Below are positions 9,743-17,728 of a stretch of 32,000 bases of DNA, piece by piece (the first letter of the stretch is position 1; each line of letters starts with the position of its first letter). Where the stretch lies: positions 420,001 to 452,000 of the forward strand of contig SHMX01000003.1 in assembly GCA_008080745.1 (NCBI GenBank), written 5' to 3'. The position numbers and the translations under genes were made by a program. The stretch comes from Candidatus Thorarchaeota archaeon (GTDB lineage: Archaea; Asgardarchaeota; Thorarchaeia; Thorarchaeales; Thorarchaeaceae). The notes under the pieces are model-generated. The model was given only the letters and a program-made list of their open reading frames with translations. It did no database searches and was not told the origin of the DNA.

Positions 9743-10600
9743 TTATCTCTTGTTAGGTCTACTTCGACCATAAAGACGACCTGACTCTTCCTCAGTCATC
9801 TTAAAGCTGTGTTCAGAAGAGGGGAACGATCCCTCTCTGACATCAGATGCGTATTCTGAAACAGCATCTCTGATTATTTTTCTAATATTGGTATATTTTT
9901 TAAGAAATTTTGGTTTGAAGTCCTCAAAAAGGCCTAACATATCCCAAAGTACTAGAACCTGTCCATCGCAATAAGGCCCTGCTCCAATTCCTATAGTGGG
10001 AATATCTATAGATTCCGTTATCATTTTTGCTGATTCAGAAGGAACAAGTTCAATCACTATTGAGAAAGCGCCAGCATCTTCCAATGCCTTTGCCTGTTCA
10101 ATCAATTCCTCAGTAGCATCGGCAGTTCGTCCCTGAACACGGTACCCACCAAATTCATAAACACTCTGAGGTGTCAACCCGATGTGGGCCATTACAGGAA
10201 TCCCAGCATCAACGACCGCCTTGACAGTCTTGATGATATGCGAACTACCACCCTCGATTTTCACAGCCTCAGCTCCCCCATCCTGTAGCATCCTGCTGCA
10301 ATTATGTAGAGCCTGTTCAATGCTGACTTTGTAGGTCATAAAAGGCATATCACCAACAATAAAGGAGTTGGGTTTAGCACGAGCTACCGCTGCACAGTGA
10401 TGAATTACATCTTCTAATCGAACAGGAATAGTACTCTCATACCCAAGAAGAGAATTACCTACCGAATCGCCTACTAATATGATATCAATACCAGCATCAC
10501 TAAGAATAGAGGCTGTAGGAGCATCATAGGCAGTTAGCATAACGATTTTCTTGCCTTTCTCCTTCATCTGACGGATACGATGGGTTGTCATTCTAGCCAA
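9743..10600 (-). CDS. panB: 3-methyl-2-oxobutanoate hydroxymethyltransferase
   Basis: MLTAYDA, ILVGDSVG, VGDMPF, AVKIEGG, AHIGLTPQS, IGIGAGP.CDGQVLV motifs. Confidence 0.97.
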   Translation of the reverse strand: MARMTTHRIRQMKEKGKKIVMLTAYDAPTASILSDAGIDIILVGDSVGNSLLGYESTIPVRLEDVIHHCAAVARAKPNSFIVGDMPFMTYKVSIEQALHNCSRMLQDGGAEAVKIEGGSSHIIKTVKAVVDAGIPVMAHIGLTPQSVYEFGGYRVQGRTADATEELIEQAKALEDAGAFSIVIELVPSESAKMITESIDIPTIGIGAGPYCDGQVLVLWDMLGLFEDFKPKFLKKYTNIRKIIRDAVSEYASDVREGSFPSSEHSFKMTEEESGRLYGRSRPNKR

Positions 10601-10681
10601 AGTAATTCTCCAAGATATAGTGAGTAAATGGGACTATATATAGAATTTCTATGGCACATACGTATTCTATGATTATTGCGA

Positions 10682-12649
10682 TTATCTCTTTCTACTTACC
10701 ATAAAGACATCAGAACGTGGGACAAATGCACCTTTTAGAAACCTACGAAGAAGTTCGATCATTGCCCCACGTCGTATTCCTTGTTCCTTAGCAAATGTTG
10801 TAACTGGTATAGCCCCGGATTCTTCGGTCATCTCATGCAATTTGAGTATCCAGTCACGTGTAACAATCACCCCCGCTTTTGCAACAAATACATCCTCATC
10901 ATCAAGCCGAGTTCTTATTCGACTGGATAGGTCTGAATAATCTACTCTTAGACGTCTTGAAGTAATCATGAGGTCATAGCTGCCTTTAGTATCCAGGGCC
11001 CATCTCATCAGACTGAAGATAGTATCAATAGAGATTAGGGTACCGGTTGTACTTACTAAGGCATCCAGTGAAAGACTACTGATAATCTGGCGTACATCCG
11101 AAGGATCGAGCATTCTTTCTCTGGCTTCTTTCCCCGGGTCCAAGACACCTTTTGCTGTAAAGATTTGTTTGAGTTCACGTTTTAGTTTGGATACGGGAAC
11201 CAGTCCACCATTGGAATTCATGACAGCATCAGAATCAATCTGAGCTAATAGAGCCTGAGCAATACCGACCGTTATATTGTATTTCTCAACTAGAGTAGTA
11301 GGGTCGACCGACTCACCAGAATCTAATGAACATGTAATCTTCGTTCTTGCCCAAGAGATTGAAAGGTGGTCTCCCGATTTGTTGGATACCGTTCTCATTC
11401 CAAATTCCTTGAGTAGAATATTTAGAGTAGGATTAGTTATACCCCATTCATCCTCAACGGAATCTATAGATATTATTCCATCCTCAGATATTTCATCTAG
11501 TAGCCAACGGCGGAATACTGCTGTTGATATGTATTTTCCACGTCCGATAGTTCTGGCATTTTCATTATTGCGAAGAATAGTTTCTACGATTCTTGCATCA
11601 ATACCTAGATTGTCAGCTTCTTGGTGTACTTCTATTCTTCCTGTAAGGGTCAGATTATCTAATACGCGTTCTTTTAGATAATCGTAAGTCACGATAATTC
11701 CATCATCATCTACAAAGAATTTCTTTCCTGTCCTTCGAACAATTTTCATGAGTGCATCTTGATCTATACACAGTTGTTTTGCCTCGGTAACGGGATTCAG
11801 ATAACCCTCTGATTCAAGAAGGCATTCCAAACGATTAGCGACAATATGAACAGGAAGTAGTCTATGATCTGTTGTCTGTATAACAGACCAACCAAACCTC
11901 CTCATTGCCTCTATGATATCACGTTCGGTAACAGCCAATCTCATTGCCTCCATACTAGGCTCAATAAACCCACTTTTTTCCATTGAACGTTCTAATGTGC
12001 TCCTTAGCCAATCAGTAGAAACAAGAAATCCATTCCCCATTTCGATAAGATTCCAACCCCATCTCTCAACCAAACGAACAAGATCGAAACGCTTTACATG
12101 AAGACGCTGAGCCTCTGAAGTGACATTGATTCGTCCTTGAAGACCAATGACTTCTCTCATGCGCTCCTTAAATTCAGGTACCAATATGTAATCGCCATCT
12201 TCGGTCTGAACAACATCTAAACCCTCTCGGTTTGTGATGACCGCCACTAAATTTTCTATGATAACTTCAGAGATGTCCCACATTGCAGATTCTTTTGCAA
12301 CATGAATTACATGATTATCTACAAGGAGATTATGAAGACGTCTAATAAGCAAGGTTGACGATACTACAGAAGATTTGCTAAAACTCAGTATTGCATTTTC
12401 TGCGTGTCGTGCTGTGTAGATAACAGAGAGAATAGATATGTCCTTTCTGTCAAGTCTAGAGGTGAGTTCGGATACGGATAATGTCATATTAGTAGTTAGT
12501 AACTGCTCCAGCTTTCTGATACGTCGATTTCTTATCCTCTGAATCCAGAAGAAAACACCACCAATAAGGATAAGAAAAAGAATTGCTGCTAGTACAAGGG
12601 ATAGGATAACATCATTACCCAGTATCTGCACTAGCATCTTTCTATCCAA
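10682..12649 (-). CDS. Single-pass membrane protein with about 11 tandem ~55-aa winged-helix-like repeats (UFL1/DDRGK1-like)
   Basis: N-terminal TM (VILSLVLAAILFLILIGGVFFWI) followed by a basic stretch, then recurring G-h-h-x-h-xx-ea-xx-l-x-h...G-x-h-h units. TTG start at 12649 abuts the ATPase stop; alternative ATG at 12637. Confidence 0.7.
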   Translation of the reverse strand: MDRKMLVQILGNDVILSLVLAAILFLILIGGVFFWIQRIRNRRIRKLEQLLTTNMTLSVSELTSRLDRKDISILSVIYTARHAENAILSFSKSSVVSSTLLIRRLHNLLVDNHVIHVAKESAMWDISEVIIENLVAVITNREGLDVVQTEDGDYILVPEFKERMREVIGLQGRINVTSEAQRLHVKRFDLVRLVERWGWNLIEMGNGFLVSTDWLRSTLERSMEKSGFIEPSMEAMRLAVTERDIIEAMRRFGWSVIQTTDHRLLPVHIVANRLECLLESEGYLNPVTEAKQLCIDQDALMKIVRRTGKKFFVDDDGIIVTYDYLKERVLDNLTLTGRIEVHQEADNLGIDARIVETILRNNENARTIGRGKYISTAVFRRWLLDEISEDGIISIDSVEDEWGITNPTLNILLKEFGMRTVSNKSGDHLSISWARTKITCSLDSGESVDPTTLVEKYNITVGIAQALLAQIDSDAVMNSNGGLVPVSKLKRELKQIFTAKGVLDPGKEARERMLDPSDVRQIISSLSLDALVSTTGTLISIDTIFSLMRWALDTKGSYDLMITSRRLRVDYSDLSSRIRTRLDDEDVFVAKAGVIVTRDWILKLHEMTEESGAIPVTTFAKEQGIRRGAMIELLRRFLKGAFVPRSDVFMVSRKR

Positions 12650-15577
12650 CTACAAGGTTTCTCCTTTATCTCTCAGACTCTTTTTGTACAGTTCTAGACC
12701 AACAATGGTTGGGGCTGCAAATAGAATACATATGAGCCAATCCATCCAGCTCAAAGGTATGAAGTAAAAGTGCAGTCCAAATGGAGCAAGTATGGCTTGT
12801 GCGATTGGAACATACATGAGTAATAGATGAGCTAGATAGATGAGTCCAAGCAATATGACATAGCGAATGATTCCAGGTTCCAGAATTCCCTTTGTAACTG
12901 GCATATTGATTCTTCTGATTAGAAGAACGAGAGAGCTCTCCAGTAGCAAAATGACAGTCAGTAACATGGTCCGAGCCTTTGCAAATGGGTCGATTTCCAT
13001 AAATGGTTGATTATTGATTGGATTTATCGCTTCGTGATAGAAACCACCATAATTGTCAATATTCATTGGAATAATTTGCCAAAGTGTCATGGTAAATAAT
13101 GCAGCTGCACCAATAACCATTAGAACAACGTTCAATGTCATAAATTTAGCTATCGGGCGAGTAATGATCTCTTGGCTATCACGCGGTTTCTCTTCCATGG
13201 CTCGTGGTGATGTCTTATCAAAGACCAATGCCAAACCAGGGAAGGAATGGGTGGTAACGACAAGATACAGGCTCTGCCATTGAGAGAGAAAGTTAATGAT
13301 GTCCGGCATCAGGAACATAGCACCGAAGAAGATAATACTCTCAAACAGATTAATAGCGATATAGAAGTATATCATCATTCTAATTTTATTGAAAAGTCCT
13401 CGGCCTTGATGAACACCAGTCACAATTGATGCAAAACTATCATCGGTAATAACCAGGTCAGCAGCTTCCTTAGCAACATCTGTACCAGTTATACCCATGG
13501 CAATTCCTGCATCACTCATGGCCAAGGCAAGAGCGTCATTTACTCCATCACCAGTCATTGCAACAACTTTTCCATCGTCTTGGTATCGTTCTACAATGAC
13601 CTGTTTGTGTTCAGGGTTAACTCTAGCAAAAACATTGACACGGAGGAAATTATCATTACTAAGAGATTCTATCTCTCCTCCTTCAATAGCTAAAGAGTCC
13701 GGTCCGTAGATGTTGAGATTACGAGCAATTGTTTTTGCTGTGGCTGCTGCGTCCCCTGTAATCATAATAACATTGATACCAGCACTGTGACAGGCGTTTA
13801 CAGCCTCTTTTACACCATCACGTGGTGGATCAACAATACAAGTAAAACCAAGATATACAAGATTGGATTCAACATCATCACGGTTTGTATCACTGCTGGC
13901 AGAGTTCATCTCCTTCTTAGCAAGAGAAATAACTCGATATCCCTCTTCAGCATATTTGGTTGTAATTTCTCTGATTTTTTCAATATCTGCCTGAGACATT
14001 TTTCGTTCGTTAGCGTTCCCTCCAATTTTGGTGCATCTTGGCAGCAAGACTTCGGTCGCACCCTTAACAAATGCGACATATTTGCCATCTGCCTCACACA
14101 CTTTGGACATACGTTTGAGTTCTGATTCGAACGGATACTCCGCAATGATTTTGTATTTCTCTTTTACCTCAGCTTCGTCAATTCCGCTTTTTCTGAAAAA
14201 GGTGAGTAGTGCAGCGTCCGTTGGATCTCCAAGGGGCTTCCAATCGATTCCTTGACCAGGTAGTTCCTTCTTTACTATCTCAGCATCATTATTGACACCC
14301 GCACATAATAGCATCTGATAGAGGCCTTTCCAAGCATATACATCACTTACAAGTACTGAGTCTGCTTCGCTAGGATTTTTCATGAATGATTCATCTTTCA
14401 TCCTATACAATTCACCTTCAGGGACGTATCCTGCACCAGATATTGTATAGAGATTTTCAGAATCCCAAGCGATGGTGACGGTCATTTGATTCCGGGTCAT
14501 GGTACCCGTCTTATCACTACAAATAATGCTTACACGACCTAAACTCTCAACAGCTGAGAGATCACGAATAATGACTCCTTTCTTAGCCATTGCAAGCACT
14601 CCAGTAAGAAGAACAATGGTGGTAAGCAAAGGAATATTGATGGGCATGATAGTCATAGCTTTTGTAATCCCAGATGTCAATGCTGCAGTCAATGATGGTG
14701 CTTCAAGTCCGGGATATATGAAAGGTGCAATAATCAAGACCCATAGCACTGATGTAGCCATTAAGCCAATCGAGGCAATTCCCAAAAATTTCGCTAGAAG
14801 GTTTACCTTCTTCCGTAATGGAATATCACCTGTGTTCAATGACTCTAGAGTACCTTGGATTTTACCAATCTCTGTATGCCCACCGGTTGTGGTTGCGACT
14901 GCTTTTGCAGTACCAGTAGCTACATAGGTGCCAAAGAAGACCATATTGCGCATATCAGTAAGAGGGACATCCTCTGATACTTTTACATCGCTATTTTTGG
15001 TAACAGGAACACTTTCTCCTGTTAGAGAAGCCTCATTTGCTGTGAAATTAGAACATTGAATAATTCTTCCATCAACAGGAATCTTATCACCCTGCTCTAA
15101 AATGAGAATATCACCAGGGACAATTTCATGTGGTTCAATCTTCATCTGATGCCCGTCACGGATGACTCTCGATTCGCCTGCAGAAAGTTTCTCCAACGCC
15201 TCAAGTTTCTTTTGTGCTCGAAATTGTTGAAAGATTGCAACAATGCAGTTGACTCCAACGACAGCCAGCCATACAGCTGCTTGAGCAAGCTGATTGCTTT
15301 CAGTTGGTGGAGCTGTAACAGCGAGGATAATCAAAGCTATAGAGCTTAAAAGATAGATATTGATAAGCCAATTCAGAATTGGAGCAAGGTACACCTTCCA
15401 AAAAGATCCCTTAATTTTAGGAATGATATTTGGACCATACTCTTTTTGCCGGTCCTTCACTTGTTGTGCAGAGAGTCCAGTATTAGGATCGGTGTCTAAT
15501 TTTCGAAAAGTTTCATCGAGACTAAGAGCATGGAATTCTTCGCCATGACTGTTGGTGGATTTTTCCTCAGTAATCAT
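12650..15577 (-). CDS. P-type ATPase, P2A (SERCA/PMR1)-like scaffold with a non-canonical transport site
   Basis: LTGES, CSDKTGT, KGATE, DPPR, MITGD, FARVNPEHK and MTGDGVNDA motifs; about 10 TMs. GAGGGA SD supports the ATG at 15577 (the ORF extends to 15616). Substrate uncertain. Confidence 0.93.
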   Translation of the reverse strand: MITEEKSTNSHGEEFHALSLDETFRKLDTDPNTGLSAQQVKDRQKEYGPNIIPKIKGSFWKVYLAPILNWLINIYLLSSIALIILAVTAPPTESNQLAQAAVWLAVVGVNCIVAIFQQFRAQKKLEALEKLSAGESRVIRDGHQMKIEPHEIVPGDILILEQGDKIPVDGRIIQCSNFTANEASLTGESVPVTKNSDVKVSEDVPLTDMRNMVFFGTYVATGTAKAVATTTGGHTEIGKIQGTLESLNTGDIPLRKKVNLLAKFLGIASIGLMATSVLWVLIIAPFIYPGLEAPSLTAALTSGITKAMTIMPINIPLLTTIVLLTGVLAMAKKGVIIRDLSAVESLGRVSIICSDKTGTMTRNQMTVTIAWDSENLYTISGAGYVPEGELYRMKDESFMKNPSEADSVLVSDVYAWKGLYQMLLCAGVNNDAEIVKKELPGQGIDWKPLGDPTDAALLTFFRKSGIDEAEVKEKYKIIAEYPFESELKRMSKVCEADGKYVAFVKGATEVLLPRCTKIGGNANERKMSQADIEKIREITTKYAEEGYRVISLAKKEMNSASSDTNRDDVESNLVYLGFTCIVDPPRDGVKEAVNACHSAGINVIMITGDAAATAKTIARNLNIYGPDSLAIEGGEIESLSNDNFLRVNVFARVNPEHKQVIVERYQDDGKVVAMTGDGVNDALALAMSDAGIAMGITGTDVAKEAADLVITDDSFASIVTGVHQGRGLFNKIRMMIYFYIAINLFESIIFFGAMFLMPDIINFLSQWQSLYLVVTTHSFPGLALVFDKTSPRAMEEKPRDSQEIITRPIAKFMTLNVVLMVIGAAALFTMTLWQIIPMNIDNYGGFYHEAINPINNQPFMEIDPFAKARTMLLTVILLLESSLVLLIRRINMPVTKGILEPGIIRYVILLGLIYLAHLLLMYVPIAQAILAPFGLHFYFIPLSWMDWLICILFAAPTIVGLELYKKSLRDKGETL

Positions 15578-15760
15578 CGCTGTCCCTCTTGGAGTGTGAA
15601 TATTGGATATAATCACAGCAGATAAATGAAATTGTAATCAACTGATAAGTGTGCATTTCGTATCCGATAGAGAATGCTGCACCTTTTGAGTCTTTTCAGC
15701 TTGTTTCGATAAGTTCATGTAAGTTCTTTACCTGAGTGTTTCAAGATTGAGGTAAAACCA

Positions 15761-17728
15761 ATGTCAAATTATTGGGATTATGAACAACCAATTGCACATT
15801 CTTCTTCGACAAGTGGAAAAAAAATAGCTGGTGCATTGATTATTGTAATGTTAGTACTGTCCACAGGAATTGTAGTCCTGCTAGGTATGTTTGAAGGGTT
15901 TCAATTCACCAGAGAGTCAGATGTGAGAGTTGCTGTGCTTGATACTGGAATTGATGCAGATTTCACAATGCAGAGTTCAATTGTTGCAGAAAAGAGTTTC
16001 ATAAACCCAGAAAATGGATACTCATATACTGATACAACAACAGATGATAGCAATCCTGAAGGTTCGCCTCATGGAACAATTGTTGCAAAAGCAGTTCTAG
16101 AAGAATTCCCAGCCGCAAAAATCCTCAATGGAAAAATAATGAATAACGAAGGAACTGCTACGACATTGGGAGTTATTGCAGGGATAAAGTGGGCAATCGA
16201 GCAAAATTGCAGCGTAATTAATCTGAGTCTAGGCTCTAGTCCCTCGTATAATGATAGCTTGGAAGAAACTATCAATTGGGCATTTAATCAGGGTATAGTT
16301 ATTGTAGCATCAGGAGGTAACGAGGGTGAAGAGGGTCTTAGCGGAACAAGTATTTCTTCTCCAAGTGTGTTTGAAAGATGTGTTTCCGTTGCGGGCATGG
16401 ATAGAGATGGCACCCCAGCCGGTTTTACCAGCCATGGTCCAACTGGTTCGTTCTATATGAAACCCGATATTGCTGCCCCAGGATATGTTCAGTCAGGCTC
16501 ATACATTTATTTCGGAACAAGTTTTGCATCTCCCAGAGTTGCAGGCGGTGTTGCGGATATTATCGATTATTGTATCAACAATGAGATAGATTATTCACCG
16601 GGAATGATCATTGCTGCTCTATTAGAAGGAGCAAGACAATTAGAATATCCAGAGTACATTGTTGGAGCAGGAGCAATGAGTATTGCTCAGTCAAAACTGT
16701 TAATCTCGGATGCCAATGATGGGACCGGAATTCCAAACATTGCTTACGCACATCCTAGTTATTTGCCAATTGAATATGAGAAATTATTCTATGGAGACAG
16801 GTATCAGTTCAAGATTCATCTCTTCTGTGGAGGGGTAGGAACATTTGATGTGGATGTATACAGTACAACTCCTGAAGTGTTTGATATCACCGAAACTGTG
16901 AACATCAATCAATCAACACTTGTAGATCTAATGATTGAGGCCCCTAGCTCAGGAAACCCTGAGATTGATGCAAATATCGGATTTTGGTCTTCTGATTTAG
17001 GAATGGCTAATTTATCCATTAGTTTCTCGTTAACAGACCCGGTTGCAAGAGTTGCCTTCGATAATACACATACAACATGGGATATCGACACAAAATACGG
17101 CCAATTCAGAGAATTCTACAAAAAATTGGTAGGAAATTCAATATCAGTTGAACATATCACTGACAGAGCAGACATCACTCTGAGTAACTTTAATCGATAC
17201 GATGGCATCATAATGTTAGACCCATGTGCATGGGATGTAGACGATTCAGATGCCACAAGCCGCTTTTTGTTCTCCATACCTTTCACACCAGACGAGATTC
17301 AAGTATATCAGGACTACTATGAGAATGGTGGCGGGTTATTCATTTCTGCTTTATCAAACGAAAGTTTGGATATTTCAAGCCTCAATGACTTTCTGGATTG
17401 GGCAGGATTGGAACTAGCTAGCGATAAACTCCCAGGAGCAGATGCTGTTGCAGAGGTGTCAAATCTGGCGAATCATGATATAACAGATGGAGTAGACTCC
17501 TTCGATTTTGTGGGTGCACCATTTTCAGCATCAGGAACTGCAACCGTACTAGCAACCCTGCAGAGCAGAGCAGTCCTAGTGAGTAACACACATTCCTCAG
17601 GTGGAAGGATGGTGGTTACAGGTACCAATTTCTTCATTGATAATTGGGGAATGTTGGGAGAATATAATTCGAATGATAATGATATTTTAGCTCTACAAGT
17701 GATTCAATGGATAACGGGACTAATTTAG
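15761..17728 (+). CDS. Membrane-anchored S8 subtilase with an Ig-like domain and a C-terminal GATase-like (DUF4350/GIFT-type) domain; site-1-protease-like
   Basis: Catalytic D61 (VAVLDTG), H104 (PHGT), oxyanion N187 (GGNEG), S254 (GTSFASP); N-terminal TM; C-terminal VAFDNTH...[10 protein letters not shown]...GGRMVVTG domain. GAGGT SD at 15749-15753. Confidence 0.9.
   Translation: [655 protein letters not shown]

Follow-up and report, generated by a model that had tools for sequence, protein, structure and literature searches.

We examined a 32,000-nucleotide (nt) stretch of a Candidatus Thorarchaeota genome (contig SHMX01000003.1, positions 420,001 to 452,000; hereafter the window), in which the gene for an atypical P-type ATPase is followed, on the minus strand, by the gene for a single-pass membrane protein built of winged-helix (WH) repeats, here called the WH protein. 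An earlier note on this DNA had read the pair as a zero-gap, translationally coupled unit encoding a candidate two-component membrane machine, with the WH protein as an accessory subunit that links the pump to ribosomes or other cytoplasmic partners. Our analysis favours, with moderate confidence, a different account: the WH protein would be a dispensable, lineage-specific add-on that relies on the ATPase promoter for its expression. It would tether a scaffold to the membrane without being required by the pump, and would not be a dedicated subunit. The evidence comes from the distribution and descent of the two genes, the gene order around them, the junction between them, and the properties of the two proteins.

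The distribution is strongly one-sided. In a first sample of 61 genomes (the window's own, 36 of the same family, f1, and 24 from 17 other families), the WH protein was found in 16 of the 36 f1 genomes and in 0 of the 24 from other families; an ATPase orthologue (59-85% identity) occurred in 34 of the 36, and relatives at 39-50% identity, sometimes as tandem pairs, were present in other families. A WH profile search across the whole family (86 f1 genomes, including the window's) gave about 24 genomes with a WH orthologue and 73 with a single-copy ATPase orthologue. The WH gene is present in all genomes of genera g1, g5 and g8, in most of g10 and g11, in one of three g7 genomes, and also in g9, g15 and g16; the family profile found no WH orthologue in g3 (0/17), g4 (0/7), g2, g12 or g13, and the weak matches in 2 of 28 g6 genomes are to other WH-repeat proteins. 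About 50 of the 73 family ATPases thus stand without a WH neighbour, as do all 15 of the more distant relatives (39-50% identity) in other families, and the family profile found no WH copy elsewhere in the genomes of WH-less ATPases. In genomes without a WH gene the ATPase is intact, present in one copy and 59-69% identical to that of the window. A family hidden Markov model (E <= 1), run over the 4.5 kb downstream of the ATPase at 18 + 12 WH-less loci, revealed no diverged WH gene: at the 18 loci, panB comes next after the ATPase in 16 (49-212 nt) and after a 184-amino-acid (aa) ORF (open reading frame) in 2, and at the 12 loci of other families the downstream genes are unrelated. Where the WH gene does exist, it lies directly downstream of the ATPase and on the same strand in 21 of 21 testable genomes, a count that includes five further WH-bearing genomes with enough contig and a metagenome contig from ENA. 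The gene pair is therefore conserved within this range. The earlier note's analogy with the dedicated subunits of P4 and P2C pumps (CDC50 and beta) does not hold, because most ATPases of this type lack the neighbour, the very outcome that the note had named as a refutation, and the WH gene has been lost repeatedly while the ATPase stayed intact.

Those losses are visible on an ATPase tree rooted with other families, on which lineages with the WH gene are scattered among lineages without it. At least three changes of WH state are needed to account for the well-supported branches, parsimony gives seven, and presence of the gene differs within genera g7 and g11. The clades of the WH tree mirror those of the ATPase tree (G024 with G033; G005 with G020 and G351; G000, the window genome, and G001 near G015 and G016; G009 with the g8 genomes), with branches about three times longer. 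Among the ATPase alignment columns, none tracks WH presence, the best frequency difference being 0.6 at a conservative I/V/L site, and no obvious shift in ATPase branch length follows loss of the WH gene. The simplest history to fit these trees would be one early insertion between the ATPase gene and panB in an ancestor of the family, followed by vertical inheritance and repeated clean loss that left the ATPase intact.

Perfect adjacency proves little here, because the gene order of the whole neighbourhood is largely inherited. A divergent membrane subtilase gene lies upstream of the ATPase in 26 of 30 family loci (L020-L049), and panB follows downstream in essentially all loci, with an SCP2 gene beyond it, family-wide and regardless of the WH gene. 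As the downstream neighbour with or without the WH gene, panB is a synteny control outside the module. The WH gene, furthermore, appears to have no promoter of its own, so its separation from the ATPase would silence it, and such reliance on the ATPase promoter explains the one-sided dependence of the WH gene on the pump without any protein-protein link.

The junction between the two genes had been the starting point of the earlier note. In the window, two minus-strand ORFs lie end to end, the first of 988 codons (GTG 15616 to TAG 12652-12650) and the second of 655 codons (TTG 12649 to TAA 10684-10682), and the TTG (12649-12647) directly adjoins the TAG, just as had been reported. Comparison with orthologues indicates, however, that the WH gene probably starts at ATG 12637 and not at TTG 12649. 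In G001, an orthologue from the same genus, the junction reads TAG TTG GAT TGA GAA ATG; the in-frame TGA two codons on closes the TTG frame, so the WH gene of G001 can start only at the ATG. This ATG is common to both genomes, in the window at 12637-12635 and 12 nt past the TAG, and the N-terminus that it specifies (MLVQ...) lines up with orthologues beginning M-L-(L)-Q. In 11 of 13 orthologous junctions, 8-31 nt separate the ATPase stop from the WH start, several of these spacers carrying GGAGG- or GGTGA-like boxes; in the remaining 2 of 13 the chosen start is a GTG overlapping the ATPase stop, a choice that is uncertain. On the independent metagenome contig the spacer is 23 nt. From these comparisons we conclude that the zero gap would be an artefact of ORF calling, and neither the TTG start nor a gapless arrangement as a trait of the gene pair is confirmed. 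True zero-gap coupling, in which TTG 12649 is used and re-initiation at the ATPase TAG fixes a 1:1 synthesis ratio, could appeal to the abutting codons and to a GGAG 11 nt ahead of the TTG inside the 3' end of the ATPase gene, but it has to contend with the TGA behind the equivalent TTG in G001, the conserved downstream ATG, the orthologue N-termini that match it, and spacers that elsewhere measure 8-31 nt and in several cases carry Shine-Dalgarno-like boxes of their own, and we regard it as unlikely. Re-initiation coupling across the 12 nt is possible.

On this sequence evidence the ATPase and WH genes appear to form a two-gene operon. They are very likely co-transcribed, because the gap between them is too short for a separate WH promoter, unlike the 81-nt spacer between the WH gene and panB, and most orthologous junctions have similarly short spacers. 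About 33 nt ahead of ATG 15577, a TATA-like box, ATTATAT, may serve as the promoter of a bicistronic mRNA with a short leader or none; together with the G001 orthologue, which begins at the equivalent ATG (MITEEK), this box makes 975 residues the probable length of the ATPase. Within the 81-nt spacer, a second box, TTCTATATATAG, and a GGAG 7 nt ahead of panB TTG 10600 may mark the end of the operon. The public sequencing runs that carry the stretch are two marine-sediment DNA runs, possibly the source of the assembly, and no RNA run is listed among them. The features of the locus are collected in the table.

Table. Coordinates of the genes, motifs and candidate signals in the window
Feature	Position	Strand	Basis and remarks
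P-type ATPase gene	12650..15577	-	975 aa from ATG 15577, stop TAG 12652-12650; mechanical ORF start GTG 15616
WH gene (membrane-anchored UFL1-like winged-helix array)	10682..12637	-	651 aa from probable start ATG 12637, stop TAA 10684-10682
Spacer of 12 nt, TTGGATAGAAAG	12638..12649	-	Between ATPase TAG and likely WH start ATG; includes the TTG of the earlier note
Predicted single transmembrane helix of the WH protein, aa 10-33	12539..12610	-	AlphaFold2 and hydrophobic segment; basic RIRNRRIRK behind
Predicted tandem WH domains (~11), aa 50-647	10697..12490	-	Secondary structure repeats about every 55 aa
TGES	15011-15022	-	ATPase sequence
M4 motif P-I-N-I-P, replacing P-E-G-L-P of P2 pumps; SERCA E309 position is Ile	14630..14644	-	Alignment to 6zhf
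DKTGT phosphorylation motif	14501..14515	-	ATPase sequence
TGDGVND	13535-13555	-	ATPase sequence
M6 His at SERCA D800 position; N796 position is Val	13247..13249	-	Alignment to 6zhf
Candidate promoter, TATA-like box ATTATAT	15607..15613	-	~33 nt upstream of ATG 15577; read from sequence
Putative TATA-like box TTCTATATATAG	10634..10645	-	Within the 81-nt spacer between WH gene and panB; read from sequence
panB (ketopantoate hydroxymethyltransferase)	9743..10600	-	Pfam and NCBIfam; TTG start 10600
Membrane subtilase gene	15761-17728	+	Upstream of and divergent from the ATPase gene

The WH protein itself is rightly described in the earlier note, which had called it a WH-repeat membrane protein and pointed to UFL1-DDRGK1. 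It is a UFL1-like single-pass membrane protein, as profile, predicted structure, structure search and structural alignment agree. Its single Pfam match is E3_UFM1_ligase (PF09743, 25.7 bits against a cut-off of 23.2), a profile that matches 13 of 14 WH orthologues (best E 3.2e-13). The AlphaFold2 model, built from a 14-sequence alignment (predicted local distance difference test, pLDDT, 89.5), consists of one long helix at residues 10-49, in which the transmembrane (TM) segment 10-33 is followed by RIRNRRIRK, and then of about 11 WH repeats that extend to residue 647 of 651. The top five Foldseek matches in the PDB are all UFL1 or UFL1-DDRGK1 (E 4e-12 to 1e-7), including human UFL1 on the 60S (8qfc_B, E 4e-12; 8ohd_A; 9gy4_E) and a UFL1-DDRGK1 chimera (8b9x). 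VIA-align pairs 340 residues with UFL1 29-514 in 8ohd_A (Z 12.2, root-mean-square deviation 13.6) and 220 residues with 8b9x_B (Z 12.0, deviation 6.9), the high deviations arising because WH arrays bend differently.

A hydrophobic segment followed by a basic stretch is present in 14 of 14 WH orthologues, and by the positive-inside rule the protein would lie N-out and C-in with a cytoplasmic array: the stretch ahead of the TM helix is just about 9 residues long, and the remainder is on the basic, predicted cytoplasmic side. Conservation is lowest in the TM helix (pairwise column identity 0.21; the WH repeats lie at 0.26-0.48), no residue is invariant ahead of position 93, and the best conserved repeat is WH3 (154-207). 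The poor conservation of the helix and the lack of invariant residues before 93 suggest that it may serve as a plain anchor rather than as a specific intramembrane interface.

The ATPase carries the full P2 set of Pfam domains (Cation_ATPase_N, E1-E2_ATPase, Cation_ATPase, Hydrolase and Cation_ATPase_C), and its catalytic machinery is intact as judged from its motifs. It scores under every NCBIfam equivalog cut-off, the best being PMR1-type (470 bits against 798); the P5 model TIGR01657 (232.8 bits against 618) falls well under the P2 models, and the P4 model reaches 104 bits against 431. Membership of P5A or P4 was considered and is ruled out by these profile scores, and the M4 motif of P5A pumps (Spf1 / ATP13A1), PP(E/A)LP, is absent, M4 reading PINIP. 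The earlier note's analogy with P5A accordingly fails, as the ATPase is P2-like and not P5 by its NCBIfam scores, whereas its description as an atypical P-type ATPase with the M4 motif PINIP is upheld by alignment to 6zhf, the Listeria Ca-ATPase LMCA1 and closest solved relative (423 bits). In that alignment the cation ligands of P2 pumps, the Glu of M4 PEGL and the Asp of M6 (SERCA E309 and D800), are replaced by Ile and His, and the M5 Asn and Glu are retained. P312, P316 and the M6 His, H777, are invariant in a 37-sequence alignment, in which I313, N314 and I315 are at least 90% conserved, and P-x-N-x-P occurs in 48 of 49 family ATPase genes examined. With the P2A Ca-ATPases (Listeria LMCA1, SPCA and SERCA) the pump thus has in common the domain set, the TGES, DKTGT and TGDGVND motifs and the M5 Asn/Glu; it differs from them in having PINI(P) rather than PEGL in M4 and Val/His in M6, a difference conserved across the Asgard clade. 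P4 flippases likewise carry Ile at the M4 position equivalent to SERCA E309. The ATPase appears from these comparisons to be an Asgard-specific, P2-like pump with a non-canonical transport site, and to our knowledge the transport site of the PINIP clade is unlike that of any characterised P2 pump. The clade is conserved in Asgard archaea (39-85% identity, at least 12 families), and three genomes of other families hold tandem, same-strand pairs of PINIP-type paralogues 100-1000 nt apart (G060:C86, L070; G044:C89, L074; G054:C226, L076).

The account that we favour can be put as a sequence of steps. Both genes would be transcribed from the ATPase promoter, and the WH gene would be translated from its own ATG 12 nt past the ATPase stop. 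The product would insert N-out and C-in, which would bring its array to the cytoplasmic face of the membrane, beside the cytoplasmic domains of the pump. There the array may act as a membrane-tethered docking scaffold, independent of UFM1, comparable to the binding of ribosomes and partners by UFL1/DDRGK1.

Several observations pull the other way. The 21/21 adjacency persists where the WH protein is down to 31-40% identity, such persistence is what a functional pair would show, and archaeal operon partners are often functionally linked. The only WH copy found away from an ATPase, in G010 (L080:4180-6048, plus strand, G010:C65), lies between a hypothetical gene and fumarase and is highly divergent (23% identity, branch length 2.6), and no PINIP-type ATPase orthologue was found in this 93% complete genome; the WH protein could thus lose its normal constraint when the pump is absent, a pattern open to both readings. 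A role as scaffold or ribosome dock, moreover, is proposed by analogy, and the promoter is a candidate read from the sequence.

One rival reading is a facultative accessory subunit: the WH protein would make contact with the pump, by way of its TM helix or of its array, and in the lineages that retain it would modulate pumping or connect the pump with ribosomes or other cytoplasmic partners. This is a weakened form of the earlier note's idea, in which the WH protein would resemble the optional single-pass regulators known for P2 pumps more than beta or CDC50 subunits, and it is consistent with the operon and its 8-31-nt spacers, with the unbroken adjacency and co-divergence of the two genes, with their asymmetric dependence (no normal WH copy without an ATPase, and ATPases often without WH), and with a predicted topology that places the array on the side of the A, N and P domains. 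In small single-pass regulators of the FXYD, phospholamban and sarcolipin type, however, a conserved TM helix docks in a groove of the pump; here conservation is poorest in the helix (0.21), with no invariant residue before 93, which makes a specific helix-helix interface less likely. In addition, no ATPase position co-varies with WH presence over at least three independent losses, ATPase branch lengths show no obvious shift after loss, the synteny of the neighbourhood is kept regardless, and dependence on an upstream promoter alone accounts for the asymmetric linkage. We therefore consider a facultative subunit possible but doubtful. A complex prediction with ATPase residues 31-975 and WH residues 1-55 (both alignments), run without controls or the WH array, scored 0.00 and gives no answer either way. 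For an obligate subunit of a two-component machine, like CDC50 or the beta subunit of Na,K- and H,K-ATPases, the tight juxtaposition of the genes, conserved where the WH gene exists, is the one point in favour. Those subunits, like the WH protein, are membrane proteins encoded or expressed with a P-type ATPase, but practically all pumps of their subfamilies have one, and their extracytoplasmic domains are large, whereas most PINIP-type pumps have no such partner, either adjacent or, by profile, elsewhere in the genome, the ATPases of WH-less genomes are intact and single-copy, and the predicted partner is almost wholly cytoplasmic, with some 9 residues outside the membrane. An obligate subunit is, on this evidence, extremely improbable.

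The WH array could also belong to a membrane-tethered, nucleic-acid-binding regulator of the ToxR/CadC kind, whose response to a membrane signal would be to bind DNA or RNA and control the operon or other genes. Taken singly, WH repeats can be superposed on the DNA- or RNA-binding WH domains of PurR, Z-alpha and SelB at Z 7-8.4, and weak HTH, MarR and FeoC Pfam matches occur among the WH orthologues, yet a Z of 7-8 for one WH domain is a generic fold match, and the arrays of UFL1, which bind proteins and ribosomes, match far better. Eleven tandem WH domains are unlike known one-component regulators, and the cytoplasmic part is mildly acidic (isoelectric point 5.1-6.3, net charge -4 to -24 across 13 orthologues), which together make this reading very unlikely.

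Among known systems, UFL1-DDRGK1 offers the closest comparison. UFL1 and DDRGK1 have been proposed to originate in Asgard archaea, with a possibly UFM1-independent action, and UFM1 and UFC1 have been reported in eukaryotes only (Picchianti et al. 2023, PMC10183829). The tandem WH array is common to both systems, by PF09743 profile and by fold, and the single N-terminal TM helix with predicted cytoplasmic WH domains recalls the way in which DDRGK1 tethers UFL1. The Thorarchaeota protein differs in carrying anchor and array on one polypeptide, in having about 11 WH repeats, after which a helical C-terminal domain like that of UFL1 would not fit, and in being encoded in an operon behind a P-type ATPase, an arrangement for which we know of no eukaryotic counterpart. 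In UFL1, the helical domain that follows the WH array is the ribosome-binding C-terminal domain of the 60S-bound structures; in the WH protein it is absent, the repeats reaching residue 647 of 651, and the aligned range of UFL1 ends at about 514. The other components differ as well. Ufm1 (PF03671) was not found at E <= 0.1 in the 98%-complete window genome, a search that did not extend to UFC1 or UBA5. The DDRGK profile (PF09756) matches only 1 of 14 WH orthologues, at a non-significant E of 0.11, and its matches in the window genome are all sub-cut-off and elsewhere in the genome, an equal search giving matches in 5 of 14 control genomes. A limited library of literature on UFL1/DDRGK1 in Asgard archaea and on Asgard P-type ATPases contained no description of the ATPase-WH gene pair.

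UFL1-like proteins as such are already known in this phylum, and PF09743 matches occur in 177 of 400 of its genomes. In family f9 the dominant form, of about 800 aa, has a PF09743-type WH array in common with the WH protein but has no N-terminal TM helix and no ATPase neighbour; in G054 and G040, the two genomes where both could be placed, f9-type UFL1-like genes and PINIP-type ATPases are on different contigs. The 30 f9 proteins inspected (L081-L110) begin with a Cys/His-rich segment, MKCLFCES..FTCEKC..SFCINH, which resembles an AN1-type zinc finger by appearance only. An exhaustive WH profile search of 1.84 billion representatives returned about 17 full-length clusters at 50% identity; the TM-anchored, ATPase-linked form is, as far as sequence searches indicate, a narrow offshoot of the Asgard UFL1-like proteins. 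A feature search of the ESM Atlas gave no usable match, and a single-protein search for related loci found nothing on metagenome contigs and, on genome contigs, the sister genome only.

The nearest non-orthologous relatives form the C-terminal part of large surface proteins that carry PKD, Ig, DUF2341, NosD or fn3 domains. One of them, P0021 (L130:1254-9857; 2867 aa, E 4e-63), has PKD/Ig/DUF2341 domains followed by WH repeats, and P0025 and P0032 are further examples. These Asgard single-pass surface proteins resemble the WH protein in joining a membrane anchor to a cytoplasmic WH array, and they differ in their large extracellular domains: the WH protein exposes some 9 residues outside the cell, and its gene lies behind that of an ATPase. 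The comparison suggests a general architecture in Asgard archaea of surface receptor plus UFL1-like cytoplasmic scaffold. In these organisms UFL1-type WH arrays appear to serve generally as a module for docking in the cytoplasm, often close to the membrane, and the ATPase-linked WH protein appears to be a 'headless' member of the set. The window genome encodes two further WH-array proteins, a 638-aa protein with fn3, TM, WH and zinc-ribbon segments (G000:C6, L123:1712-3625, minus strand), itself one of these nearest relatives, and a 776-aa soluble protein with WH repeats (PF09743, 23.4 bits) and a C-terminal TPR array (G000:C1, L122:328-2655, minus strand).

UFL1 and DDRGK1 are eukaryotic proteins of the endoplasmic reticulum (ER). 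It is conceivable, though distinctly unlikely in our judgement, that a UFL1/DDRGK1-type scaffold was active at membranes before UFM1 and that the Thorarchaeota protein is an optional adaptor between ribosomes or nascent membrane proteins on one side and, on the other, a non-cation P-type ATPase, whose M4 has the Ile also seen in P4 flippases and whose M6 has His in place of Asp. If true, ER membrane-protein quality control would have had a prokaryotic precursor in such a pre-UFM1 adaptor. The literature on pre-eukaryotic UFL1/DDRGK1 goes no further than their apparent Asgard origin, and the locus provides a single-chain, membrane-anchored UFL1-like version with a defined expression partner, and so a concrete pair for bench tests. 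The negative result is equally important: the pump family is widespread in Asgard archaea without a WH partner, the pump therefore deserves study in its own right, as a stand-alone enzyme whose transport site is unusual, and 'two-component machine' should not spread as an annotation.

Further observations concern the surroundings of the gene pair. The head-to-head subtilase-ATPase pair is more widely conserved than the ATPase-WH pair. A scan for sigma-70 promoters and intrinsic terminators was set aside, as its sites were no more numerous than in shuffled sequence and its models are unsuited to archaea. The spacer between the ATPase gene and panB looks like a landing site for lineage-specific genes. 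In the g3 genomes G018 and G027 (L056:3976-4527, minus strand; L057:2939-3490, plus strand), the 184-aa ORF found there has no Pfam match and overlaps the ATPase stop by 19 nt, and on contig L127 a 133-aa ORF lies between the WH gene and panB.

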